NCBI GenBank assembly: GCA_023379265.1
Contig: JAMCUI010000015.1
Span: 1 to 60,704, forward strand
DNA from: Patescibacteria group bacterium
GTDB taxonomy: Bacteria; Patescibacteriota; Microgenomatia; 2-02-FULL-39-11
Direction of reading: 5' to 3'
Length of the DNA stretch: 60,704 nucleotides
The notes under the pieces were generated by a model, which was given only the letters and a program-made list of their open reading frames with translations, searched no databases and had not been told where the DNA came from. Made by a program: the position numbers and the translations under genes. Below are positions 38,637 to 52,714 of this stretch, piece after piece (position 1 is the first letter of the stretch; every line of letters starts with the position of its first letter).

Positions 38637-40121
38637 ATGAAGAAATTTTTGGCTGGGTTTAACAAGCATATATATCTTTGGGGAACGGTTTTTTTCCTTG
38701 CGGTAAATCTATTCCAGCTGACGAGCATGCCTATATTCAACGATGAGGGAATCTATCTCCATTGGGGCCGCGAATTCTATCAGGGTTTAGGCAAAGGGTA
38801 TCCCCTTATGGTGGCAGTTGACGGCAAACAGACAGGAGTCCCTTTAGTATATGGGTTGTTGCAGTTTCTACCGATTGATCCTCTCTTGTCTGTCCGTTTT
38901 TTTAGCGTAGCCGTATCACTTGTTACATTTTTGGCCATCCTTGCCGTTTATAAAAAAGTCAGCGAGAAAAGACCGGATATCTTTTTGGTGCTTTTGCTGA
39001 CATTCAGCCCCTATCTTCTTTTTTTTGACCGGATGGCTCTTCCAGACGGATTGATTGCGGCATGTTATACATTGTCGGTTCTCATATCCCTCTCTTTATT
39101 TGAAAAACCGCAGATTATAAAGGGGTTGGCGCTGGGTGCGGTAATTGCCCTGGGATGGTGGTTTAAGTCAACCATACTTATCATACTGCCTCCATTTCTT
39201 ATCCTTTTGGTTTGGAGATTCAGGAAGAAAGATTTTTCTTCCGGGAGACTTATTGCGGCAGTTCTGGCAGGAGCTATGATTTTTCTTCTTATGGTTGCTC
39301 CGATAATCTTCCATCCTGATTACCAGAGGATGGCTTTTCCAGAAAGCAATAGAATTTACTCTTTTTCTGAAGTATTGCGCCAGGCGCCTAAGCTTTTTAC
39401 CGACAAAGCACCCCTTTATACAGCCTGGTTTGCCGATTATGCGACGCCTTTAGTCTTTATGTCATTTCTCTTGGGTATTTTGTGCCTGATAAAGAAAAAA
39501 GGCTACCGGCCTCTTTTTGTATTTCTGGTGGTGCCTATTCTTGCCGAAATATTTTTGGTCAAGATATTTTCTGCCAGATATATCGTTTATGTATTGCCTC
39601 TTTTTCTCCTTTTTTCCTATGAAGGCTTCTCTTTTATAAAACAAAAAAGTTGGAAGTATGCATTTTTATTTGCGACTCTCCTTTCATCCATGACAGTCAG
39701 TCTGCTCCTTATTTTTTATCCCGGGCGGTTTTACCAGCTGATGGAAAAATTTCCTAAAGGTCGTGAAGATCTTTACCAGTATTTTGACGGATGGACTTCA
39801 GGTTATGGGGTCAAAGAGGCGGCCGACTGGATAACAAAAGATGCGGGAGAAAGACTCAGTGTAGTCTTTGTCCGGGATGACAGCGGCAACCCAGAGGATG
39901 CGATGTATGTCTTCCTGCGGCGGGATAATATAAAAGTTTTCCCCATAAATCTTTTGGGCTATTTTGCCAGACAAAAGGACGTCAGGCTTTATTTTGTCTC
40001 AAGAGGTGTCCAGATGGGAGGAGTGGAAAAGTATGCACGGCTACTCAAAAGATATGATAAGCCTTTTGGGAATGAATATATAGGTATATATAATATTGCG
40101 CTTCCGGAATCGGGAAGTTAG
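38637..40121 (+). CDS. GT39/ArnT-like (PMT_2) membrane glycosyltransferase
   Basis: About 11 TM helices with a short C-terminal soluble domain. Start ambiguous (TTG 38613, ATG 38619, ATG 38637). Confidence 0.6.
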   Translation: MKKFLAGFNKHIYLWGTVFFLAVNLFQLTSMPIFNDEGIYLHWGREFYQGLGKGYPLMVAVDGKQTGVPLVYGLLQFLPIDPLLSVRFFSVAVSLVTFLAILAVYKKVSEKRPDIFLVLLLTFSPYLLFFDRMALPDGLIAACYTLSVLISLSLFEKPQIIKGLALGAVIALGWWFKSTILIILPPFLILLVWRFRKKDFSSGRLIAAVLAGAMIFLLMVAPIIFHPDYQRMAFPESNRIYSFSEVLRQAPKLFTDKAPLYTAWFADYATPLVFMSFLLGILCLIKKKGYRPLFVFLVVPILAEIFLVKIFSARYIVYVLPLFLLFSYEGFSFIKQKSWKYAFLFATLLSSMTVSLLLIFYPGRFYQLMEKFPKGREDLYQYFDGWTSGYGVKEAADWITKDAGERLSVVFVRDDSGNPEDAMYVFLRRDNIKVFPINLLGYFARQKDVRLYFVSRGVQMGGVEKYARLLKRYDKPFGNEYIGIYNIALPESGS

Positions 40122-40226
40122 GAATACGGGAAAAGGAATTTTTCTTGTCCCTTTCTACGGAACTTATACATTGAATACACGTGGCGTGAAGGTATAAATG
40201 CCCTACATAAATGCCCTTTCTACCTC

Positions 40227-40255
40227 TTGCACGGGAAAAAAGCTTAGTGTATAAT
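40227..40255 (+). promoter_or_regulatory. Sigma70-type promoter upstream of tuf
   Basis: TTGCAC, 17-nt spacer, TATAAT, 65 nt before the tuf ATG (SD TAAGGAGG). Confidence 0.55.
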
Positions 40256-40320
40256 TTCGCTACCCCAAATAATTTGGGAATATTTTTATTTTGTTATAAA
40301 CATCTAAGGAGGAAGTATTT

Positions 40321-41505
40321 ATGGCTACAGGAGTTTTTCAGAGAAGTAAACCCCATCTTAATATCGGGACTATCGGTCACGTTGATCACGGTAAGACTAC
40401 ACTGACTTCAGCAATTACACACGTGTTGGCCCAAAAAGGTATGGCCAAAGCTCTGAAATACGAAGAAATAGATAATGCTCCTGAAGAAAAAGCCAGAGGT
40501 GTCACAATAAATATCCACCACTCCGAGTATGAAACAGCCAAACGCCACTATGCACATATCGATGCCCCAGGACATGCAGATTACATAAAAAACATGATCA
40601 CTGGTGCAGCCCAAATGGATGGCGCCATTTTGGTGGTCTCTGCTCCTGATGGTCCGATGCCCCAGACAAGAGAGCACATACTTCTGGCACAACAGGTAAA
40701 CGTGCCGGCAATTGTCGTTTTTCTTAATAAGGTCGACATGGTATCGGATAAGGAACTTTTGGATCTGGTAGAGATGGAAATCAGAGAGCTTTTGACCAAA
40801 TACAAATTCCCGGGAGACAAAGTCAAAATTATAAGAGGCAGCGCCCTCAAGGCTCTGCAGGGAGACGCGGAAGCTATCAAGTCAATTGAGGCTCTAATGG
40901 ATGCGGTAGACAGCGAAATTCCCACACCGGTACGTGATACAGACAAACCGTTCCTTATGCCTATTGAGGATGTTTTCTCAATCAAGGGCCGAGGGACAGT
41001 CGTTACCGGCAGAGTGGAAAGAGGAAAGATAAAAGTCAACGAAGAAATAGAGATAGTCGGTATAAAGGCCACACAAAAGACAGTTATCACAGGGGTCGAA
41101 ATGTTCAGGAAAACTCTGGATGAAGCGATGGCCGGAGACAATGTCGGCCTTCTTCTAAGAGGTGTCGAGAAAAACCAGGTGGAGCGCGGACAGGTAGTAG
41201 CCAAGCCTGGCAGTATCACCCCTCATACAGAATTTGAGGCTGAGATTTATGTCCTGACGAAGGAAGAAGGAGGAAGGCATACGCCTTTCTTCACAGGATA
41301 CAGACCGCAGTTTTATGTAAAAACTACTGATATTACTGGCGAGATTACCCTTCCCAAGGGAGTGGAAATGGTGATGCCGGGAGACAGTATCAAGATGACG
41401 GCAAAACTCATCGTGCCTGTAGCTCTTGAGGAAGGCCAGAGATTTGCAGTAAGAGAAGGCGGACATACAGTAGGTGCGGGAGTAGTAACAAAAATACTAA
41501 AGTAA
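40321..41505 (+). CDS. tuf: Elongation factor Tu
   Basis: 394 aa with [17 protein letters not shown] and NKVD. Confidence 0.98.
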
Positions 41506-41583
41506 AGAGTTATTTGAAATTCCGCAGCTTCTAGCGGACATACAGTAGGTGCGGGAGTAGTAACAAAAATACTAAAGTAAAGA
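41459..41583 (+). repeat. Repeat-spacer-repeat: the 3' end of tuf (50 nt including the stop) repeated at +75 nt
   Basis: 41459-41508 is identical (50/50) to 41534-41583, with a 25-nt unique spacer. Confidence 0.9.
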
Positions 41584-41601
41584 AGTTTTAACAATAAGAA
41601 A

Positions 41602-41910
41602 ATGCCGAAGGGACGAATTCGCGTACGTTTAAAAGCTTATGATGGCAGAATCATTGATGATTCATGCCAGAAGATACTGGATACGGCCGTAAGGACCGGT
41701 GCCCGGGTGGTGGGACCAATACCTCTGCCGACGGAAAAACAGCATTTTTCCGTCCCAACATCCCCGTTTACCGATAAGGATAGCCGGAATGCGTTTATGG
41801 TGAAGATACATAAGCGCCTTATCGATATCATCGAGCCTACGGACAAGACTATTGACTCTTTAATGCATCTGGAACTGCCAGCAGGCGTGGACATAGAAGT
41901 AAAGATGTGA
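41602..41910 (+). CDS. rpsJ: 30S ribosomal protein S10
   Basis: 102 aa starting IRVRLKAYD; position after tuf. Confidence 0.95.
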
Positions 41911-42068
41911 AAGTAGAGTTGGACTTTGGGTCAAGAGGATTGTGTTGTAATTCAAGAGCAGGCGTGGACATAGAAGTAAAGATGTGAAAGTAGAGTTGGA
42001 CTTTGGGTCAAGAGGATTGTGTTGTAATTCAAGAGCAGGCGTGGACATAGAAGTAAAGATGTGAAAGT
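41880..42068 (+). repeat. 77-nt unit x 2.45 beginning 30 nt inside the 3' end of rpsJ
   Basis: 41881-41957 equals 41958-42034 (77/77). 42035-42068 repeats the first 34 nt. Each copy contains AGVDIEVKM plus TGA. Confidence 0.9.
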
Positions 42069-42096
42069 TCCAAAATGTCAGACGGGTTGATTTGGT

Positions 42097-42125
42097 TTGA
42101 TATATCAGACTTAAATCTGTATAAT
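42097..42125 (+). promoter_or_regulatory. Consensus sigma70 promoter inside the rpsJ-rplC spacer
   Basis: TTGATA, 17-nt spacer, TATAAT. Confidence 0.55.
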
Positions 42126-42193
42126 TGTAAAAGATCATGATGGTGAAAAAACACCGTTATAAAACAAAATAATCGGATGTTGCGGGATATTTA

Positions 42194-42219
42194 TAGCCCC
42201 TTATCCGGGGCTATTTTTT
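42194..42219 (+). terminator. Rho-independent terminator 19 nt upstream of rplC
   Basis: TAGCCCCttatccGGGGCTA followed by TTTTTT. Confidence 0.75.
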
Positions 42220-42238
42220 GTTTGAATGATAATAAATT

Positions 42239-42892
42239 ATGATACAAGCAATTTTAGGCATAAAAAAAGATCAGTCGCAGACTTTTACACCGGATGGGAA
42301 AAGAATCCCGGTGACACGCGTATCGACTGCTTCATGCCGGGTGGTAAACGTAAAAACTGAAGATAAAGACGGTTACAATGCTATCCAGCTTGGTATTGGT
42401 AGCAAAAGAGCCGTTACTCTCACTAAACCTGAATTGGGAAATTTGAAAAAGGCGGGGTTGGACAAAAATCCACCCCGTTTTTTGCGGGAAGTCAGCATAG
42501 AGAACAAAGAAGATTTTACCGATGAGAAACTCAAACCGGGTTCAGAAATAAAAACTTCTGACGTATTTAAGGAAGGTGATGTTATCCAGGTGACCGGTGT
42601 GACCAAAGGTAAAGGTTTTCAGGGAGCAGTAAAAAGACACCACTTCAAGGGAGGTCCCAGGACCCACGGACAGTCAGATCGCGAAAGGGCTCCCGGCTCA
42701 ATAGGCCAGACTACTACTCCGGGAAGAGTCTACCGCGGCAAAAGAATGGCAGGACATATGGGCAGCGATACAGTGACAGTCAAAAATCTGAAAGTAGTCA
42801 AAATTGATGATGAAAAAAACATATTGACAGTTTTGGGTGTGGTACCTGGTGGAAGAAATTCGCTGCTTGTTATTAAAAAGTTAACAAATTAA
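42239..42892 (+). CDS. rplC: 50S ribosomal protein L3
   Basis: 217 aa with GVTKGKGFQG; S10-operon order. Confidence 0.95.
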   Translation: MIQAILGIKKDQSQTFTPDGKRIPVTRVSTASCRVVNVKTEDKDGYNAIQLGIGSKRAVTLTKPELGNLKKAGLDKNPPRFLREVSIENKEDFTDEKLKPGSEIKTSDVFKEGDVIQVTGVTKGKGFQGAVKRHHFKGGPRTHGQSDRERAPGSIGQTTTPGRVYRGKRMAGHMGSDTVTVKNLKVVKIDDEKNILTVLGVVPGGRNSLLVIKKLTN

Positions 42893-42962
42893 TTAGGGGA
42901 AGATTAGAACAGGGGCAGCAAACTAAATCTGCAATTATCATTACCAAATTATAAGTACAAAT

Positions 42963-43841
42963 ATGCCAAGGGTAAAAAAAGATAAAGAGCAAATAGAGAC
43001 AAAGAAAGATCTGAAAATTGACGTATACAACCTGAGCGGAAAAGTGACTGGGAAAGCGGATCTGCCGGGTGAGTTTTTTGCGGCAAAGGTATCAATGCCT
43101 CTTATAAATCAGGCTATCCGTGTATATACCGCAAACCAGCGTGCAGGTACCCACGACACAAAAACCCGGACTTTTGTTATCGGTTCCACCAAAAAAATTT
43201 ACCGCCAGAAGGGTACAGGGCGTGCCAGACACGGGGATATCAAAGCCCCGATTTTTGTCGGTGGAGGAGTGGCTCACGGCCCAAAACCAAAAGACTATTC
43301 CCTTTCTTTGCCAAAAAAGATGAGACAAAACGTTTTTTGCGCATCACTCACTGACAAGTTCCAGAATGGGAAGCTAAAAGTAGTGACGGGATTGGCAGAG
43401 ATCGAGCCTAAGACAAAAAATGTCAACCTGATGCTCAAGAATTTGGGATACTTGGCTGACGATGGAGCACTTGGAAAAAGCGTCATATTGGTATTGCCTT
43501 CAGTCATGAGGAATGTGATTTTGGCCGGAAGGAATATCGAAAATCTCTCTGTTTCCCAAGTGGAAAATTTGAGCGCTTATGATGTAATGAGGGTGCAAGA
43601 AGTGCTTTTTATGAAAGAGTCTCTCAAGGTTTTGGATGACAGAAGCGCTTCAAAAGTTAAAGAAGACAAAAAGGGGAAAAAGGCAATAGAAATGGATTTG
43701 AGTCTCGGGACGGGAAAGCCGGAAGAAAAGAAGCCAAAAACGGTAACAGCAAAGAAAGCAAAAAAGGAAGAGAAGCCAGCCAAAAAGACTGTAAAGAAAG
43801 CAGTCAAAAAGGTAAATGGAAAATCAGCAAAAAAGAAATAA
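42963..43841 (+). CDS. rplD: 50S ribosomal protein L4 with an approximately 85-aa Lys-rich C-terminal extension
   Basis: L4 core (QKGTGRARHGDIKAPIFVGGGVAHGPKP) followed by a KKPKTVTAKKAKKEEKPAKK... tail. Confidence 0.93.
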   Translation: MPRVKKDKEQIETKKDLKIDVYNLSGKVTGKADLPGEFFAAKVSMPLINQAIRVYTANQRAGTHDTKTRTFVIGSTKKIYRQKGTGRARHGDIKAPIFVGGGVAHGPKPKDYSLSLPKKMRQNVFCASLTDKFQNGKLKVVTGLAEIEPKTKNVNLMLKNLGYLADDGALGKSVILVLPSVMRNVILAGRNIENLSVSQVENLSAYDVMRVQEVLFMKESLKVLDDRSASKVKEDKKGKKAIEMDLSLGTGKPEEKKPKTVTAKKAKKEEKPAKKTVKKAVKKVNGKSAKKK

Positions 43842-43854
43842 GTTGATATTTTAT

Positions 43855-44151
43855 ATGTCAGAAAACGTAATTATACGACCAATAATAACTGAAAAATCAT
43901 TGATAGACGCAAAAAACGGAATCTTTACATTTGCAGTGGAAGGGAAAGCGACAAAATTCCAGATAAAGAAAGCGATAGAGTCGATGTTTAGCGTCCATGT
44001 CAAATTGATCACAACCGTAAAGACTAAAGGTAAAAAAAGGACTGTAGGCAGGAAAAGGCTGACGGTATATAAGCCTGATTTGAAAAAAGCCAGAGTCAAA
44101 TTGGCAAAGGATGAGAAAATAGATTTGTTTGAAGTAGGAGAAGGAAAATGA
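43855..44151 (+). CDS. rplW: 50S ribosomal protein L23
   Basis: The ATG at 43855 gives [15 protein letters not shown]. Confidence 0.93.
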
Positions 44152-44921
44152 CAAGATTTAGAAATTTCATGGAACCGAAATCACTCATGAGTATATTACC
44201 GAAAAATTCCGGAAGGAATAATTCCGGGAAAATTACAGTGAGGCATCAGGGAGCGCGTGAGAAAAGGTATTACCGTGAGATTGATTTTAAGAGGGATAAA
44301 TTTGGGGTAGAGGGAAAAATCATTGCCTTTGATTATGACCCAAATAGGAATGTGGAGATAGCCCTGGTGCTTTACAAAGATGGAGAAAAAAGGTATATTT
44401 TGAAACCTCAGGGTTTGAAGGTGGGGGATATGGTGCTTTCCAAGCAGGATGCCGAGGCCAGATTGGGCAACAGTCTTTTTTTGGCAAATATACCTATTGG
44501 TACTTCTGTACACAATGTTGAACTAGCAGAGGGAAGGGGTGGGCAAATGGTAAGAGGCGCCGGAACTGCAGCAGTAGTCTTGGCAAAAGAAGGAAGTTTT
44601 GCCCACGTCAGGTTGCCTTCAGGTGAGATCAGGATGATAAAAGGCAACTGCTATGCCACAGTGGGACAGCTGGCAAACTCCGAATGGAAATCACAAATTA
44701 TTGGGAAGGCCGGAAGGAAAAGGCATATGGGGATAAGGCCACAAGTACGCGGAACAGCAATGAATCCCCGTTCTCATCCGCATGGTGGAGGAGAAGGTAG
44801 AAGCGGAGAGGGTCTCAAACAGCCCAAGACTCCATGGGGGAAGCCTGCAAGAGGTTTGAAAACCAGAAAACCGGGCAAGTTCAGCGATAAATATATATTA
44901 CAAAGGAGAAAGAAGAAATAA
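44148..44921 (+). CDS. rplB: 50S ribosomal protein L2
   Basis: [37 protein letters not shown] and [13 protein letters not shown]. Shorter N-terminus than E. coli L2. Confidence 0.95.
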
Positions 44922-44922
44922 T

Positions 44923-45207
44923 ATGAGCAGAAGCCTGAAGAAAGGTCCATACATAAACCAGAAATTGCTGAAAAAAGTAATCGTGATGAAAAATTCCGGG
45001 CGCGGCGAAGCAGTGAAGACTTGGGATAGGAGTTGCCAGATACCGCCTGAATTTGTCGGCCAGAAGCTGGCTGTTTATAACGGAAGGCATTTTATAGAAG
45101 TGTTTGTGACTGAGGCGATGGTCGGCCATAGGCTTGGAGAATTTGCGCCAACCCGCACATTTAGGGGACATGGACAAGTGACAAAGAGAGTTTTGGAGAA
45201 GACATAA
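44923..45207 (+). CDS. rpsS: 30S ribosomal protein S19
   Basis: [10 protein letters not shown]...[16 protein letters not shown]. Confidence 0.96.
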
Positions 45208-45210
45208 TCT

Positions 45211-45708
45211 ATGAATAACACGGTTTATATAAAATATTTGCGGATATCCTCCAAGAAAATGCGGGGATTGGCAAAAATAGTAGTAGGTATGCCGCCCAAA
45301 GTCGCTTTGGACAGGCTGTCTGTAGTCAGCGGAAAAGCCGGCAGAATGATGAGTCTGGTCGTAAAATCGGCCATGGCCAATGCGACCAACAATATGAAGC
45401 TAAACGCCGCAGACTTGCGTATCAAAAGGATAGAGGTTTTGGAAGGACCTGCATTCAAGCGCTGGCAACCGGTATCCAGGGGGATGGCGCACCAGATAAA
45501 AAAAAGAACTACGCATTTGAGAATAGAGCTTGAAGAGAAACAGGGTAAGACGCTTCCCGCAGCAGCAGGAAAGGATAATAAGCCGGTTCAGGAAAAGAAA
45601 AGAGTAGAAAAAGCAGAAGTAAAAGCGCTGCCACAAGAAAAAGAAAAGAATATGAAAAAAGAAGAAATTGTGACTGAAAGGAGAGAAAAAAGTGGGACAA
45701 AAAGTTAA
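45211..45708 (+). CDS. rplV: 50S ribosomal protein L22 with a Lys/Glu-rich C-terminal extension
   Basis: L22 core followed by about 50 extra residues; operon order. Confidence 0.9.
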   Translation: MNNTVYIKYLRISSKKMRGLAKIVVGMPPKVALDRLSVVSGKAGRMMSLVVKSAMANATNNMKLNAADLRIKRIEVLEGPAFKRWQPVSRGMAHQIKKRTTHLRIELEEKQGKTLPAAAGKDNKPVQEKKRVEKAEVKALPQEKEKNMKKEEIVTERREKSGTKS

Positions 45709-46351
45709 TCCTAAAGGTTTTAGAATAGGTCCTCTTTATAGTTGGGAGTCAAGATGGTTTGCCAACAAGAAGGATTATAAGAACTTTGTGGTGGAAGATG
45801 CCAAACTGCGCAAATCACTTCTTGCCAGGCTGCAGCCTGCAGGCATAGTGAAGGTGGAAATTGAAAGATCGATAAACAAGATCAATATTATCCTTAACGT
45901 GGTGCGTCCCGGAATGGTGATAGGTCGGGGCGGAAGCGGTATGGAAACGGTAAAAAAATTCATAATTGATACAATTTTTGCCCACAGGAGAAGCATAAAG
46001 CAAAATATCAAGAAAGCATCCCTCAAAGTGGATATTAGGGTAGAACCGGTAAAGGAGCCTTATCTTTCTTCATATTTTGTCGCTTCCCAAATTGCCGAAC
46101 AGTTGGCCAAAAGGCTCAATCATAAGAGGGCAGTGTCCATGGCGATGGAAAAAGTGAAGACTGCCGGTGCAAGAGGAGTAAAAATTGTCCTATCAGGAAG
46201 GATAGGCGGGGCGGAAATCTCAAGACGAGAAAGCTATAAGACTGGTACTATACCCTTGTCGACATTACGTGAGGATGTTGATTTTGCGGCTGTACCATCC
46301 CTGACTAAATCCGGTTACATAGGCGTGAAGGTCTGGATTTGCAAGTCATAA
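45692..46351 (+). CDS. rpsC: 30S ribosomal protein S3
   Basis: GTG start; MGQKVNPKGFRIG; KH domain. Confidence 0.95.
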   Translation: MGQKVNPKGFRIGPLYSWESRWFANKKDYKNFVVEDAKLRKSLLARLQPAGIVKVEIERSINKINIILNVVRPGMVIGRGGSGMETVKKFIIDTIFAHRRSIKQNIKKASLKVDIRVEPVKEPYLSSYFVASQIAEQLAKRLNHKRAVSMAMEKVKTAGARGVKIVLSGRIGGAEISRRESYKTGTIPLSTLREDVDFAAVPSLTKSGYIGVKVWICKS

Positions 46352-46378
46352 AAAAGCAAAAGATTCATTACTTATATT

Positions 46379-46786
46379 ATGTTAGTACCAAAAAGAGCAA
46401 AATACAGAAAACAGTTCCGGGGCACAATGGGAGGCCAATCGCTTCGGGGTAGTTACCTTTCTTTTGGCGAATACGGCCTAAAGGCTATGTCGGCCAGCTG
46501 GGTGTCATCCCGTCAGATAGAGGCTGGAAGGCGCGTTTTGACTAGATATACAGCAAAGGGAGGTCGTGTCTGGATCAGGATATTTCCTGATAAGCCAGTT
46601 TCTGACAAACCGCCAGAAGTAAGAATGGGAGGGGGCAAGGGAGATATAGTTGATTATGTAGCAGTGGTGCGGCCGGGAAGGATAATTTTTGAGATGGGGG
46701 GAATCCCTGAGGAATTGGCAAAAGAAGCCCTTGAGTCTGCTTCTAGTAAATTACCACTGAAGACAAAATTTCTGAAAAGGGACTAA
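46379..46786 (+). CDS. rplP: 50S ribosomal protein L16
   Basis: MLVPKRAKYRKQFRG... Confidence 0.96.
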   Translation: MLVPKRAKYRKQFRGTMGGQSLRGSYLSFGEYGLKAMSASWVSSRQIEAGRRVLTRYTAKGGRVWIRIFPDKPVSDKPPEVRMGGGKGDIVDYVAVVRPGRIIFEMGGIPEELAKEALESASSKLPLKTKFLKRD

Positions 46787-46790
46787 AAAT

Positions 46791-47003
46791 ATGAAAAAAA
46801 GTGTTTTTAAGGACTTGAGGAACAAATCGGATGAAGAACTGAAAAAGATGGTGGCTGATACCAAAAAGGAGCTTGTAAAGATTATGATCCAGCATAAATC
46901 AGGCAAACTCAAAGACGTCATGCTTTCCAGAAGAAAAAAGAAGGATATTGCCAGGATGTTAACAATTTTGCGTGAGAAAAAGATTACGCAGGAGAGAGCA
47001 TAA
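46791..47003 (+). CDS. rpmC: 50S ribosomal protein L29
   Basis: 70 aa; position between rplP and rpsQ; typical LRNKSDEEL helix. Confidence 0.9.
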   Translation: MKKSVFKDLRNKSDEELKKMVADTKKELVKIMIQHKSGKLKDVMLSRRKKKDIARMLTILREKKITQERA

Positions 47004-47007
47004 GTAT

Positions 47008-47280
47008 ATGAAAGCAGAAAAAGAAACAACCAGGAAGCATAAAATCACAAAAACGCTGAAAGGAAAAGTAGTGTCCAATAAAATGACCAGGACTATAGTG
47101 GTTGAAGTGGGCAGGCAAAGAGTGCACCCTCTTTACAAGAAAATCATGAGAAGATCCAAAAGATATAAGGTCGAGGGAGATGAAAAATCAGTAAATATAG
47201 GAGATATGGTAAAGATTGGTGCGGTGAGACCGATCTCAAAAGAAAAACATTTTCAGTTAATAGGTAAAGTAGGAAAATAA
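47008..47280 (+). CDS. rpsQ: 30S ribosomal protein S17
   Basis: ATG at 47008; [17 protein letters not shown]...HPLYKK. Confidence 0.93.
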
Positions 47281-47281
47281 T

Positions 47282-47656
47282 ATGATCCAACTTAGAAGCA
47301 TCGTAAATGTAGCAGACAACAGTGGAGCGCACAGGCTTTCTGTCATCCAGGTGATGGGGCACGGTAATAGGACTCTAGCTTACTTGGGGGATGTAGTAAA
47401 CTGTGTTGTAAAAAAAGCGGACCCTGAAGGTATGGTCAAGACCCATGAGAAAGTGAAAGCGGTAATTGTACGCTCCCGCAAAGAAAAAAGAAGGCTAGAC
47501 GGTTCATATATCAGGTTTGACGACAATGCGGTTGTGATAATTGACAATCCCAAGGATAAAAATCCCAAAGGTACCAGGATTTTTGGGCCAGTTGCCCGTG
47601 AGCTCAAGGACTTGGGTTTTGCCAAGATTGTTTCCATGGCCCAGGAGGTATATTGA
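47282..47656 (+). CDS. rplN: 50S ribosomal protein L14
   Basis: [16 protein letters not shown]... Confidence 0.96.
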
Positions 47657-47743
47657 CAAAAGTTGCGGGTAGAATTCAGATTTATTATTCTGACAATCTG
47701 TAATCTGATTCCGTAATTCAAGTTTATTAAAGCAACAAATCAT

Positions 47744-48049
47744 ATGAAACTGAAAAAAGGCGACGAAGTCATAATTACATCCGGAAAGGATAAGGGTAAA
47801 AAAGGCAAGATAGAGAAAGTATTTAGAAAAAGCAATACGGTACTTTTGCCGGGTTTGAATGTTTTTAAGAGACATATGAAAAAAAGGGACGAAAACAATC
47901 CCGGAGGGATAATAGATTTCCCCCGACCGGTAAAAGTGGCAAACGTGGCCCTTATCTGTCCCAAGTGCGGAAAGCCAACCAGAATAGGATATAAAGTCCA
48001 GGGAGATACCAAAAGCCGTATTTGCAGAAAATGTGATTCAATATTATAA
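47744..48049 (+). CDS. rplX: 50S ribosomal protein L24
   Basis: KKGDEVIITSGKDKGKKG KOW motif. Has a CPKCG...CRKC zinc-ribbon-like C-terminus. Confidence 0.93.
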   Translation: MKLKKGDEVIITSGKDKGKKGKIEKVFRKSNTVLLPGLNVFKRHMKKRDENNPGGIIDFPRPVKVANVALICPKCGKPTRIGYKVQGDTKSRICRKCDSIL

Positions 48050-48053
48050 TCTT

Positions 48054-48623
48054 ATGTCTAATCTTTTTAAGTATTATCAGGAAGAAGGAAGAAAAATTTT
48101 GGCCAAGGATTTGGGCATTGGGAATATCATGATGGTGCCCAAGCTGGTAAAGATTGTAGTCAATATCGGCCTTGGTGAGGCGCTGACAGACAAGAAGGTG
48201 CTTGAAGTGGCAGCAGGGCAATTGTCCCAGATTACTGGGCAAAAACCTTCCATAAGGCGTGCTAAACATGATATTTCCTCTTTCAAGTTGCGTCAGGGAG
48301 ATGCGGTAGGACTAAAAGTGACCCTTAGGGGAAGAATGATGTATGATTTTTGTGAGAAGCTGGTGAAGATAGTTTTACCAAGAATCAGGGATTTTCGGGG
48401 AGTGCCAGATACCGGTTTTGATAAGGAAGGCAATTTCACATTGGGATTATCCGAACAGATAGTATTTCCGGAGATAGAATACAGCCAGGTAGATAAGATA
48501 AGAGGACTGGAGATGACCTTTGTCATTTCCGGTAAAGGAAAGAAAGAAGCAAGGAGGCTTTTGGAGGTTTTGGGTATGCCGTTTAAGAAACCGGTTGCAG
48601 CAAAGAGGGCAGAAGGGAAATAA
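48054..48623 (+). CDS. rplE: 50S ribosomal protein L5
   Basis: ATG at 48054; [16 protein letters not shown]. Confidence 0.95.
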
Positions 48624-48640
48624 TAATTTTTTATAAAAAT

Positions 48641-48826
48641 ATGGCTAAAGTATCTGATATAGTCAAATTCAAGAAAAAACAGAAATTCAATGTACGCGCG
48701 CATAACCGCTGTCAGCTATGCGGAAGAAACAGGGGATATATGAGAAAATTCGGTTTATGCCGGCTTTGCTTCCGCGAGTTAGCCCTGAAAGGTGAATTGC
48801 CAGGAGTAGTAAAGGCTAGCTGGTGA
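48641..48826 (+). CDS. rpsN: 30S ribosomal protein S14, type Z (zinc-binding, 61 aa)
   Basis: [10 protein letters not shown]...CRLCFRE. Confidence 0.95.
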
Positions 48827-48994
48827 GGCGTAAGACAGACTTAATTCGTAGGTTTTGATGAGTGACGGAAACAGCGGGAGTAGTAAAGGCTAGCTGGTGA
48901 GGCGTAAGACAGACTTAATTCGTAGGTTTTGATGAGTGACGGAAACAGCGGGAGTAGTAAAGGCTAGCTGGTGAGGAGTAAGACAGACTTAATT
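48803..48994 (+). repeat. 74-nt unit x 2.6 beginning 24 nt inside the 3' end of rpsN
   Basis: 48803-48876 equals 48877-48950 (74/74). 48951-48994 repeats the first 44 nt with one mismatch (48977). Confidence 0.9.
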
Positions 48995-49010
48995 ATTGAA
49001 TAAAAAATAT

Positions 49011-49406
49011 ATGATGACTGATCCGATTTCAGATTTGCTGACACAGATAAAAAATGCCTATATGGCGGAAAAAAAGACGATTGAGGTATCCCACAGTAAT
49101 ATGCAGGAGTCTCTTGTAAAGCTTCTTTCCCGAGAAGGTTATCTGGGTAAAATTGAGATAAACAAAAAAGATAAAGTGAAAAAGACCATATCGGTAGAAA
49201 TGGTTTATGAGGATAAGAAACCCAGATTGACAGAGATAGTCCGTGTCAGCAAACCCAGCAAGAAAGTATATATCTCTAAAAATGAGATACCCAGAGTCTT
49301 GGGAGGGTTGGGGATTGTGGTCATATCCTCTCCTGCAGGTTTAATCTCTGGCAGGGAAGCAAGGAAAAAAGGTATAGGCGGAGAGTTAATCTGCAAAATT
49401 TGGTAA
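49011..49406 (+). CDS. rpsH: 30S ribosomal protein S8
   Basis: ATG at 49011; MMTDPISDLLTQIKNA...GGELICKIW. Confidence 0.95.
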   Translation: MMTDPISDLLTQIKNAYMAEKKTIEVSHSNMQESLVKLLSREGYLGKIEINKKDKVKKTISVEMVYEDKKPRLTEIVRVSKPSKKVYISKNEIPRVLGGLGIVVISSPAGLISGREARKKGIGGELICKIW

Positions 49407-49476
49407 GCCTTTTTAGAATTTAGATAAATACTGATGATAAAGAATAGACGGAAAGCTGATCTATAAGATTTGGTAA
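49374..49476 (+). repeat. Diverged second copy of the 3' end of rpsH at +70 nt
   Basis: 49374-49406 and 49444-49476 match at 26 of 33 positions with no gaps, and both end in TAA. The peptides are IGGELICKIW* and IDGKLIYKIW*. Confidence 0.8.
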
Positions 49477-49495
49477 AGTTTATTTGTATAAAAAT

Positions 49496-50056
49496 ATGTC
49501 AAGAATAGGACAAAAACCCATTGCAAAGGAACAAGATGTCAAAGTAGAAGCGAGCGGCAGTGCCGTACACGTGGAAGGGTCAGCCGGAAAGATGGATTTG
49601 ACGTTGCCGGAAGGTTTTTCGCTCACTACAGGAGAAAAAGAATTACTTCTAAAGATCGAAAATGAAAGAATTGCCGACGGCAAAATTCATGGGCTTTTCC
49701 GCAGTCTTTTGCAAAATGCAGTGACAGGAGTAAAAAAGCCGTGGACCAAGACGCTGGAGCTTGTGGGAGTAGGTTATAGAGCACAGACAACTGGTAGCGA
49801 CCTGGTCCTGAATTTGGGTTTTTCCCACCCGATAAACATAAAAGCACCGGCAGGGATTACATTCCAAGTGACTGAAAACAAAGTGACTGTTTCCGGGGTA
49901 GATAAATATATGGTGGGAGAAATGGCGGCAAAAATAAGAAGGTTGAAACCACCCGAACCTTATAAGGGGAAAGGGATAAGATATACAGGTGAACATATAA
50001 GAAAGAAACTCGGTAAAGCTGCAAAGGCGGTTGGTGGGGCAGCAGGCGCAAAGTAA
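49496..50056 (+). CDS. rplF: 50S ribosomal protein L6
   Basis: ATG at 49496; MSRIGQKPI... Confidence 0.95.
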   Translation: MSRIGQKPIAKEQDVKVEASGSAVHVEGSAGKMDLTLPEGFSLTTGEKELLLKIENERIADGKIHGLFRSLLQNAVTGVKKPWTKTLELVGVGYRAQTTGSDLVLNLGFSHPINIKAPAGITFQVTENKVTVSGVDKYMVGEMAAKIRRLKPPEPYKGKGIRYTGEHIRKKLGKAAKAVGGAAGAK

Positions 50057-50131
50057 AAACTGTCTTAAGAGTCTCAAAAAAGCATTAAGTTTTAGCAACT
50101 GGAGCTAAATAAAAATTAAAGCAAATTGACC

Positions 50132-50500
50132 ATGATAATAAAACATATAAAAGGTAATAAAAGAAGGAAATTGAGATCAAGGATAAAGGTTGTCACAAAA
50201 GGAAGAGGTGCCGGCAAGCCGCGACTTTCAGTATACCGGTCCAGCCGCTATCTCTATGCCCAACTCATTGACGATGTCAAGGGCACAACACTTGTTGCGG
50301 TTTCGGAAAAAGAGTTGAAGCTTACAGGGGATAAACAACCGACAAAAACAGAGAGGGCCAAACTTTTAGGTGCGTCTCTGGCACAAAAAGCTAAGAAAAA
50401 GGATATTAAAAAGGTAGTTTTTGACAGGGGCAGTTATCAATATCACGGCCGAGTGAAGAGTTTTGCTGACGAGGCAAGAGACGGCGGCCTGGAGTTTTAA
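50132..50500 (+). CDS. rplR: 50S ribosomal protein L18
   Basis: RLSVYRSSRYLYAQLIDD...FDRGSYQYHGRVKSFADEARDGGL. Confidence 0.95.
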   Translation: MIIKHIKGNKRRKLRSRIKVVTKGRGAGKPRLSVYRSSRYLYAQLIDDVKGTTLVAVSEKELKLTGDKQPTKTERAKLLGASLAQKAKKKDIKKVVFDRGSYQYHGRVKSFADEARDGGLEF

Positions 50501-50504
50501 TAAT

Positions 50505-50972
50505 ATGAATTCACACAGATATCCCAATGCAGTGCCTTCAGAATTTGAAGAAAAAGTGATTCAGGTCAACCGTGTTTCAAAAAAGACAAAAGGCGGTAAC
50601 AAAATAGGATTTTCCGTCCTGGTTGTAGTCGGAGACAAAAAAGGCCGGGTGGGAGTAGGTTTGGGTAAGGCGGCTGATGTCGCATCAGCGGTAAAAAAAG
50701 CCATGTCATACGCTAAGAAGCATCTTATTACAGTGCCTATGGTCAAGACGTCCATCCCGCATGAGATAAGGATGAAATATGGCGCGTCTAAAATACTTCT
50801 GAAACCGGCCCCGGGAGGTACAGGAATTAGGGCAGGAGGAGCAGTCAGGGCGGTAGTTGAGGCTGCAGGAGTAAGGGATATTGTCTCAAAGATACTCGGT
50901 ACTGACAATAAAGCGACAAACGTCTATGCTACGTTTGCGGCATTAAAAAGATTAAGGAGTCAGGTAGTATGA
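50505..50972 (+). CDS. rpsE: 30S ribosomal protein S5
   Basis: ATG at 50505; VIQVNRVSKKTKGG... Confidence 0.95.
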   Translation: MNSHRYPNAVPSEFEEKVIQVNRVSKKTKGGNKIGFSVLVVVGDKKGRVGVGLGKAADVASAVKKAMSYAKKHLITVPMVKTSIPHEIRMKYGASKILLKPAPGGTGIRAGGAVRAVVEAAGVRDIVSKILGTDNKATNVYATFAALKRLRSQVV

Positions 50973-51409
50973 TAGAACTGAATAAATTGTCTAAAATTGC
51001 AAAAAGAGGGAAAAAACGCCTCGGTCAGGGACACGGAAGCGGTAGAGGTAAGACTGCCGGGCGCGGCACTAAAGGCCAGAAAGCCAGGGGGAAAATGTCC
51101 ATGACATTTTCAGCAGGCAACCTTTCGCTTGTAAAAAGGCTACCTCTGATACGCGGCAAGTTGCGTAACCAGTCAATATTAAAGAAGAAACTGCCGGTCA
51201 ATGTCAAATTCCTCAATTTCCTTCCGGAAAATTCAGAAGTTGACCTGGACTTTCTCATAAAGAATCATATAGTAAAGGAAGATGTAAAAGAAACTGGCGT
51301 CAAGATACTGGGTGATGGGGAGTTGAAAATTGCCCTGACGGTAAAATTGCCTTGTTCCAAAGGCGCCAGGAAGAAAATTGAAAAAGCAGGCGGTAAGGTG
51401 GAAAATTAA
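50969..51409 (+). CDS. rplO: 50S ribosomal protein L15
   Basis: KRLGQGHGSGRGKTAGRGTKGQKAR. Overlaps the rpsE stop (ATGA), so no rpmD lies between them. Confidence 0.95.
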   Translation: MIELNKLSKIAKRGKKRLGQGHGSGRGKTAGRGTKGQKARGKMSMTFSAGNLSLVKRLPLIRGKLRNQSILKKKLPVNVKFLNFLPENSEVDLDFLIKNHIVKEDVKETGVKILGDGELKIALTVKLPCSKGARKKIEKAGGKVEN

Positions 51410-51427
51410 AGAGGAATTTTCCCTTGA

Positions 51428-52714
51428 ATGAACAAATATATTAACTCTATAATAAATGCCTTCAAATCCAAGGAGCTGCGGCAGAAACTAATTATCACAG
51501 CCTTCATTTTCCTAGTCTTCAGAATTTTTGCACATATACCTTTACCAGGGGTCAACTTGATAAAGCTGCGTAGCCTTTTTTCCCAGAGTGAGTTCTTGGG
51601 ACTTTTGGATATATTTTCCGGAGGTACGCTGGCCAACTTTTCGGTAATGGCCATAGGGCTAAACCCCTATATAAACGCTTCGATCATATTGCAGCTTCTG
51701 ACAATGGTTTTCCCCAAGCTTGAGGAACTTTCCAAAGAAGGCGAATACGGCCAGGAGAAAATAAACCAGTATACAAGGCTTCTGACAATTCCTCTTGCAG
51801 CTATACAAGCTGTAGGCATGTATGCGCTCCTCAAAAGCCAAAACATCATCGGCCTTCTGCCTCCCCTGACTCTTATATCGATGGTGGTCACGATGACTAC
51901 GGGGACAATACTCCTGATGTGGTTTGGTGAGCTCATCTCGGAATTTGGCGTAGGTAACGGCATCTCACTTCTTATCTTTGCCGGAATTGTTGGTCGTCTG
52001 CCGGTAGTGGCCGGACAGGCATTTACGATAGTCAATCAGGAAATGCTTGTAAATGCCGTGATATTTATATTTCTGGCGCTTCTTGTGGTAGCTGGCATTG
52101 TCTTTATTAATGAAGCGGTGCGTCAGGTGCCGGTACACTATGCTAAAAGAATTAGGGGTAACCGTATGTACGGAGGTTCGACCACATATTTGCCTTTGCG
52201 TCTCAACCAGGCCGGTGTCATACCCATCATTTTTGCCGTTTCCATAGTCCTTATCCCCTCTCTTGTGGGAAAATTTGTCGCCCTCATACCCAATAAGTTT
52301 CTGGCTGGAATTGCTGGAGGGATTGTCGCGGTTTTCAACACTAACGGTTTTGTTTACAACCTGGTCTACTTTTTACTGGTCATAGGCTTCACATACTTTT
52401 ATACTGCTGTTACTTTTAACCCGCAAAAGATAGCGGGAGAGATACAAAAATACGGAGGTTTTATCCCTGGCATCAGGCCCGGTTCGCCCACAGCCCAGTA
52501 TCTCAACTATATACTGACCAGGATTACACTGGCAGGGGCAATATTCCTGGGACTTGTCGCGATCCTTCCGGCGCTTATGAAACAAGCTACGGGCATTGCT
52601 TCCCTTACCATCGGCGGAACAGGTATACTTATAGTCGTGGCGGTAGTTTTGGAGACGGTCAAAAGTATCGAAGCGCAGCTTCTGATGAGGAATTATGAAG
52701 GGTTTTTGAAATAG
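51428..52714 (+). CDS. secY: Preprotein translocase subunit SecY
   Basis: 428 aa, 10 TM segments, conserved operon position. Confidence 0.96.

Follow-up and report, generated by a model that had tools for sequence, protein, structure and literature searches.

A tandem array at the 3' end of rpsN in a patescibacterial genome: probably a near-neutral minisatellite belonging to a genus-specific class of gene-end duplications with a step of about 75 nt

The gene for the zinc-type ribosomal protein S14 (rpsN) in the Patescibacteria genome analysed here is followed by a tandem array in which its own 3' end is repeated. This raises the question of whether such an array exists in the organism or only in the assembly and, if it exists, whether it forms part of the function of rpsN or has a more general origin. 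The array is located in the window, i.e., the complete stretch of 60,704 nucleotides that constitutes contig C15, one of 20 contigs of the genome (G000; 1.53 Mb, 94% complete, 90% coding). The relatives to which it was compared include G001 (GCA_964520615.1) and GCA_023487465.1, both of the same genus. We consider it probable that the rpsN array is a real, near-neutral minisatellite of the VNTR type and not a functional part of rpsN, and that it is a member of a genus-specific class in which the terminal 20-60 nt of a gene occur a second time at an offset of about 75 nt.

The preliminary description of this DNA reported a 74-nt unit present 2.6 times, with a single substitution in the third copy, and this was reproduced exactly, also by TRF (period 74, 2.6 copies, 99% matches, score 377). 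Positions 48803-48876 and 48877-48950 match at 74 of 74 positions. In 48951-48994 the initial 44 nt recur, altered only by a C-to-A change at 48977, corresponding to unit position 27. The content that it gave for each unit (GVVKASW plus TGA and a 50-nt tail) was also recovered; the unit starts 21 nt 5' of the rpsN stop codon (TGA 48824-48826). Comparison with GCA_023487465.1 and G001 allowed the unit to be partitioned into a block A of 44 nt, which comprises the final 24 nt of rpsN, stop codon included, and the following 20 nt, and a block B of 30 nt. The order of the array is A-B-A-B-A' (Table 1). The S14 protein is identical in all three genomes.

Table 1. Coordinates of rpsN, its array and the related gene-end copies in the window.
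Feature	Positions	Strand	Basis or remark
tuf 3'-end duplication, offset 75: A (50 nt) + B (25 nt) + A	41459-41583	+	Comparison
rpsJ (S10) 3'-end array, 77 nt x 2.45, 100% identical	41880-42068	+	Starts 31 nt before the stop codon
rpsN, ribosomal protein S14, zinc type, 61 aa, intact	48641-48826	+	ORF; PF00253; CxxC...CxxC pattern
Unit 1: block A 48803-48846, spacer block B 48847-48876	48803-48876	+	Comparison
Unit 2, 74/74 identical to unit 1; extra unit, absent from GCA_023487465.1 and G001	48877-48950	+	Comparison; Logan k=31 break points
Partial unit 3 (block A'), old distal copy of the gene end, followed by native rpsH upstream sequence	48951-48994	+	
C-to-A difference, distal copy only	48977	+	Logan contig SRR10278331_150768 ties the variant to the rpsH-proximal copy
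rpsH (S8), start region ATTGAATAAAAAATATATG the same in all three genomes	49011-49406	+	
rpsH 3' end (49377-49406) copied at 49447-49476, offset 70, 23/30 identical, decayed	49377-49476	+	

In metagenome-assembled genomes, near-perfect tandem repeats of gene ends are routinely suspected to be assembly errors. Either a de Bruijn loop or a polymorphism among strains that carry the sequence once could have been unrolled to 2.6 copies; units 1 and 2 are indeed 100% identical, the array of 192 nt may outrun a short read, and the copy number of 2.6 comes from the assembly. Furthermore, contigs of the G000 assembly do break in such arrays: the same array with a 74-nt period is found at the end of contig C20 (58965-59077) and at the start of contig C16 (17-122), which indicates that the assembly broke inside the repeat and that C20 and C16 are neighbours. 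However, three independent assemblies (G000, GCA_023487465.1, and G001) have the A-B-A structure behind the identical S14, with 2.6 copies at a period of 74, 1.6 copies at a period of 74, and approximately 1.3 copies at a period of 73, respectively. Both copies in GCA_023487465.1 carry GAGATG where G000 has GAGGCG or GAGGAG, and they differ from each other at one position. G001 possesses GTG..GCA in both copies, where all copies of G000 have GTA..GCT, and its orthologous B is followed by a truncated second copy (GGAGTGGTAAAGGCAAG) that bears G001's own synonymous changes. Since the copies differ from each other in the relatives, they cannot be the product of a graph loop, and the lineage-specific changes common to the copies of a genome show concerted evolution. 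Arrays elsewhere in G000 also show a graded divergence, with identities ranging from 81 to 99%, which again argues against an artefact.

Further evidence against an artefact comes from Logan SRR10278331, an independent assembly of raw reads that encodes identical L5, S8, and L3 proteins and for which we take k to be 31, in agreement with the 30-nt overlaps seen. Its contig SRR10278331_4454 (6794 nt) corresponds exactly to 42039-48832 of the window. Its opening 30 nt are the 3' end of the rpsJ A block, from which it continues into native downstream sequence. Its closing 30 nt, preceded by rpsN coding sequence, are the initial 30 nt of the rpsN A block with the C variant. A second contig, SRR10278331_150768, reads AGCG+GGAGTAG...GGTGAGGA...ATTATTGAATAAA...ATGATG(rpsH), in which AGCG represents the last 4 nt of B; this layout links the A variant to the copy 3' of the spacer and 5' of rpsH. 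Such break points at k=31 arise only if B-preceded copies exist both with C and with A, which implies at least two full units. An array of 1.6 copies would give a linear graph, since the stretches in common (26 and 17 nt) do not reach k-1. The copy number of 2.6 thus rests on the genome assembly together with this graph logic, and a mixture of two strains, with C and A in the distal copy, could mimic the branch. A 31-mer across the B-to-A junction gave no match in genome_contigs or metagenome_contigs when records of the genome itself were excluded. The preliminary description had considered the single substitution easier to reconcile with real evolution than with a k-mer artefact, and had proposed to test read support for the linkage of the 48977 variant to the third copy and to compare related genomes. 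Both the Logan contigs and the relatives, in which the same duplication occurs at other copy numbers, bear this out, and an assembly origin of the array seems extremely unlikely.

The comparison also suggests how the array may have been formed. The gap between rpsN and rpsH in other genera of the family is just 0-35 nt and B and A' would, therefore, have been added in the ancestor of the genus, where some 74 nt behind rpsN gave rise to A-B-A'. As the comparison of the three genomes shows, each genome has since held its copies of A alike, through gene conversion or re-copying, and B has drifted normally. The same comparison shows that G000 then gained one whole unit. Replication slippage or an unequal exchange between A and A' is the probable mechanism, and a crossover 5' of position 27 would leave the C/A difference in the distal copy only. 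The array presumably is nearly neutral: rpsN retains its frame and stop codon in the first copy and the start of rpsH is unchanged after the last one, so that the array costs little.

Comparable changes are evident at the other ribosomal-operon arrays in the window. In the rpsJ array, A (35 nt) ends 4 nt past the stop codon and B measures 42 nt. Three states of this site were encountered: A only (0.45 copies) in GCA_023487465.1 and in Logan SRR10267473 and SRR10252151, A-B-A (1.45 copies, period 76, one mismatch between the copies) in G001, and A-B-A-B-A (2.45 copies) in G000. The A block of tuf ends 3 nt past the stop codon, and the extra 75 nt behind this gene occur only in G000 among the genomes compared. 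The tuf-rpsJ spacer is approximately 21 nt in G001, GCA_023487465.1, the Logan contigs, and five other genera, which identifies the 75 nt as a derived insertion. Both copies of the rpsH 3' end finish at TGGTAA, and G001 has the same pair at a spacing of 70 with 97% identity (L040 2474/2544). Outside the window, G001 is exactly one period shorter than G000 at C1 395 (81 nt) and C7 10833 (74 nt) and has the full structure at C4 90840. At the level of sequence comparison, whole-unit turnover and concerted evolution of the arrays are thereby established; unequal exchange or slippage is the probable means of this turnover.

The rpsN array is not an isolated case. Exact local direct repeats in G000 pile up at periods of 69-81 nt, and a divergence-tolerant scan of the whole genome at all offsets from 31 to 200 revealed a bell-shaped peak of approximately 66 loci at offsets 69-81, with its centre at 74-75, against a background of 0-1 loci per offset, so that the rpsN array is far above chance. 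Lesser clusters occur at offsets near 36-46, 108-112, and 140-156. The mean period is 74.7 ± 3.2 nt, and block A measures 39 ± 13.5 nt in arrays with 1.x copies. While A spans 22-70 nt and B 13-55 nt, A+B is constant. The lengths of A have a mode at 36-37 nt, with B at 37-38 nt; a fixed geometry of 37+37 was nevertheless rejected because A tails up to 70 nt. What was initially described as a feature of rpsN is, therefore, one instance of a genome-wide class.

The members of this class are found at unrelated genes and at 5' and 3' ends alike. A gene boundary lies inside 33 of 45 arrays, compared to 10.3 ± 2.7 at random placement, and this is an undercount because the crude gene model leaves out ORFs shorter than 70 aa, rpsN among them. 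At a finer scale, block A has an outer edge that coincides with the ORF edge, where the latter is the first base of a start codon or the final base of a stop codon. The two lie within 7 nt of each other in 20 of 25 arrays (null 7.7 ± 2.3, maximum 16 in 1000 trials) and within 4 nt in 15 of 25 (null 4.7 ± 2.1), with offsets of +3 for tuf, +4 for rpsJ, and 0 for both C12 56527 and C7 10833. In the case of rpsN, the part of the block that matches exactly, up to the variant, reaches 2 nt beyond the stop codon, and the full block of 44 nt extends 20 nt beyond it. Arrays that straddle gene ends are accounted for by random duplication with subsequent selection, but this coincidence of the A edge and the ORF edge is not explained in this way.

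The distribution of the arrays among relatives was examined with scan settings that recover all three clear arrays of the window. In G001, 167 kb sampled yielded 6 pairs at spacings of ~70-76 nt. For three genomes from other genera of the same family, we found at most 1 pair, with a spacing of 69, in 400 kb of G010, and none in 200 kb of G008 or 160 kb of G006. This amounts to at most 1 candidate in 760 kb, versus ~22 predicted from the density in G000. The habit of forming arrays with a step of ~75 nt is, therefore, limited to one genus among those sampled, and a comparison of gene content between genera could reveal the responsible factor. Our literature search yielded no paper on such repeats in bacteria of the candidate phyla. 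In G008, a different spacing was noted: at two unrelated loci (L064 3844-4053 and L073 13618-13827) a 55-nt block is repeated with 100% identity at a spacing of exactly 155 nt, which may represent a different ruler (~2 x 77).

The filler between the copies of A is more difficult to trace. B segments have no copy elsewhere in G000, where they gave only chance matches of 13-17 nt, and no sequence in common with each other; a search for short local templates on either strand showed no enrichment. At C1 395, B is a strongly diverged copy of the flank next to A, with 61% identity in register, and the same holds for C7 10833 (p = 0.003). At these two loci a whole unit was duplicated and B then decayed while A stayed identical. 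In most arrays, including the young tuf insertion, B resembles neither flank. An origin of B as a decayed flank copy throughout was, therefore, rejected: it holds at C1 395 and C7 10833 and weakly at a few other loci, but fails at most loci and at tuf. The 25-mer B of tuf has no exact match in genome_contigs or metagenome_contigs and is unlike the tuf-rpsJ spacers of G004, G010, and G002. A donor allele, in which A would be the conserved coding end and B the spacer of another strain, is attractive because A ends at the ORF edge, but was dismissed at tuf since every sampled genome close enough for a 50/50 match has an ordinary spacer. Simple duplication combined with selection does not explain the unrelated filler in this young insertion either.

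A functional role in the spc operon would be another way to account for the rpsN array, either as a structured RNA or decoy that tunes the translation of rpsH, or as a translated mini-ORF that re-creates the C-terminus of S14. The array is situated between two essential, co-transcribed genes, its A-B-A core is older than the species split within the genus, the copies of A are held identical, and like copies occur behind tuf, rpsJ, and rpsH. However, the RNA of the array folds no better than shuffled sequences (z = +1.44), no Rfam family matched the region 40000-52000 at E <= 1, and no promoter-like or terminator-like site was found inside the arrays. A leader or regulatory RNA of the ribosomal operon was rejected on the basis of this lack of a conserved structure and of an Rfam family. 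The preliminary description had also drawn attention to TGATGA followed by a GTG-initiated mini-frame, VTETAGVVKASW*. A special meaning of this element is unsupported: the mini-frame exists because the gene end was copied, and in G001 the frame is displaced by an indel of 1 nt, with the second copy ending short of the stop codon, so that neither the frame and stop nor the peptide is conserved. Close relatives, moreover, have rpsJ and tuf without the copy, and the same geometry is seen at ~50-65 unrelated genes and at both gene ends. A functional element thus seems very unlikely, although the presence of such copies at four ribosomal-operon genes counts against neutrality and they may have a regulatory effect on spacing or translational coupling.

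Known systems that insert or copy short segments provide other candidates. Ectopic spacer integration by Cas1-Cas2 ("neo-CRISPR") would place a spacer-sized insert B between the copies of a repeat-sized target duplication A, and both the A-B-A geometry, with modes of 36-37 for A and 37-38 for B, and a filler without a source in the genome would fit. Cas1 (PF01867), however, gave 0 matches in the 94%-complete G000 while control genomes were positive, and A varies from 22 to 70 nt at constant A+B, the opposite of what two fixed rulers would produce. In addition, successive units share the same B (identical in units 1 and 2 of rpsN) and in some arrays B is a decayed flank copy, which makes this origin exceedingly improbable. 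The tuf and rpsJ sites are known both empty and filled and consist of an insertion with a flanking direct repeat, as would be expected for a small MITE-like mobile element inserted with a long target-site duplication. Nevertheless, the B segments are unrelated to each other and to the rest of the genome, lack conserved termini, and range in length from 13 to 55 nt, and the probability of such an element is next to negligible. A diversity-generating retroelement was rejected as well, since reverse transcriptase (PF00078) gave 0 matches in G000 and the copies are identical save for one C/A difference. Neither does the loss of a repair function provide a cause. A Pol I-type 5' nuclease is present in 20 of 20 relatives that gave a match, repeat-rich and repeat-poor alike, and MutS is absent from all searched genomes of the family, including the repeat-poor G010; since repeat-poor genera lack it as well, its absence can be no more than a permissive background. 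The open frame that encodes the Pol I-type 5' nuclease measures ~300-350 aa, a length suggestive of a protein on its own and not of part of a full-length Pol I.

The minisatellite reading, in contrast, agrees with what was observed at rpsN in several respects. The array consists of head-to-tail units well over 10 nt in length (74 nt x 2.6, 99% matches), it is present in raw data beyond one assembly as judged from the ends of the Logan k=31 contigs, and its copy number differs between relatives by whole units (~1.3/1.6/2.6 for rpsN, and 0.45/1.45/2.45 for rpsJ). Like bacterial minisatellites or VNTRs, the arrays comprise near-identical head-to-tail units of tens of bases, differ by whole units between close relatives, and occupy sites that are tolerated by the flanking genes. 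Here, however, ~50-65 loci of unrelated sequence have one unit length (74.5 ± 3 nt), many loci are just A-B-A with unrelated filler, and the block ends at the ORF boundary. The minisatellite reading covers the turnover of the units but does not account for the primary event, the step of 75 nt with its partial mode of 37+37, or the end of the block at the ORF boundary.

Other systems resemble the arrays in part. The MIRU-VNTR of the Mycobacterium tuberculosis complex reportedly are units of 40-100 bp in operon spacers. They are alike in the size range of the unit, the location between operon genes, the overlap with stop and start codons, and the variable copy number. MIRU are, however, a dispersed family with a common consensus, whereas each locus here copies local sequence without a consensus; as the units and fillers have chance matches only elsewhere in the genome, a dispersed family of this type was rejected. 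For Ehrlichia ruminantium the repeat unit is said to be ~150 bp. Active expansion and contraction of non-coding tandem repeats has been described for this species (PMC10710844). By that description, the two cases share a lineage-specific, genome-wide gain and loss of units of characteristic length in or near intergenic DNA of a small genome, while the arrays studied here have units of 69-81 nt instead of ~150 and have ORF termini as their anchor points, with 90% of the genome being coding. Turnover of the Ehrlichia type, with a non-coding unit of ~150 bp, was rejected because the units here are shorter and overlap coding ends. Yeast rad27/FEN1 mutants reportedly accumulate duplications through flap ligation. 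These are also short and in tandem (up to ~100 bp) and arise from lagging-strand processing, and a protein-coated flap could serve as a ruler in that system. Flap ligation yields pure duplications, however, whereas tuf has an unrelated filler.

The features that the minisatellite reading does not cover lead to a tentative proposal, which we regard as possible but rather unlikely. An undescribed DNA transaction, independent of Cas1 and reverse transcriptase and anchored on ORF boundaries, might operate in this genus with a step of ~74 nt (often ~37+37), re-copying the first or last 20-60 nt of a gene one ruler-length away and then keeping the copy identical to the live gene end. Filler without a detectable template would sometimes accompany the re-copied gene end. 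The ruler could be protein-wrapped single-stranded DNA, e.g., a flap or gap bound by SSB, or alternatively the footprint that the machinery of coupled transcription and translation leaves when it stalls at starts and stops. One repeat length over many unrelated sequences, together with the anchoring on start and stop codons, would point to an undescribed length-measuring step in replication, repair, or recombination. The young tuf insertion, with its copy of 50 nt and its template-less filler of 25 nt, offers a clean footprint for modelling. For practical purposes, the arrays break assemblies, as is evident at the C20/C16 contig ends and in the Logan contigs. They can also serve as markers of strains.

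A number of other observations were made during this analysis. The rpsJ-rplC spacer 3' of the rpsJ array (42069-42238, 170 nt) has 1-2 differing positions among G000, G001, and GCA_023487465.1. It contains a near-consensus promoter-like site (42097-42125, 11/12) and, just 5' of rplC, a strong hairpin with a T-run (42193-42214). Without matching an Rfam family, it could be a leader or attenuator of the S10 operon. A second class of arrays, composed of fragments of tRNA genes and with periods of 35-46 nt, is found at C10 104-306, C11 54893-55014, C20 28480-28586, and C14 9189-9283. Long coding repeats with a 9-nt sub-period (36/72 nt, Gly-X-Y-like) at C8 31186-32558, C2 1-430, C19 92859-93875, and C14 38098-38219, several of them at contig ends, are of a different kind and were left out of the array statistics. 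Arrays are dense within the 1.3 kb of C4 67561-68898 (42 nt x 4.2, 77 nt x 2.2, and a nested composite in which 36-nt tandem copies are embedded in periods of 74 and 182 nt). Finally, some members of the ~75-nt class are located in frame within coding sequence, at C6 13622-14345 and C1 395-512 (78 nt x 5.3, 81 nt x 3.0, and 81 nt x 1.5), and these would add blocks of 26-27 residues to the encoded proteins.
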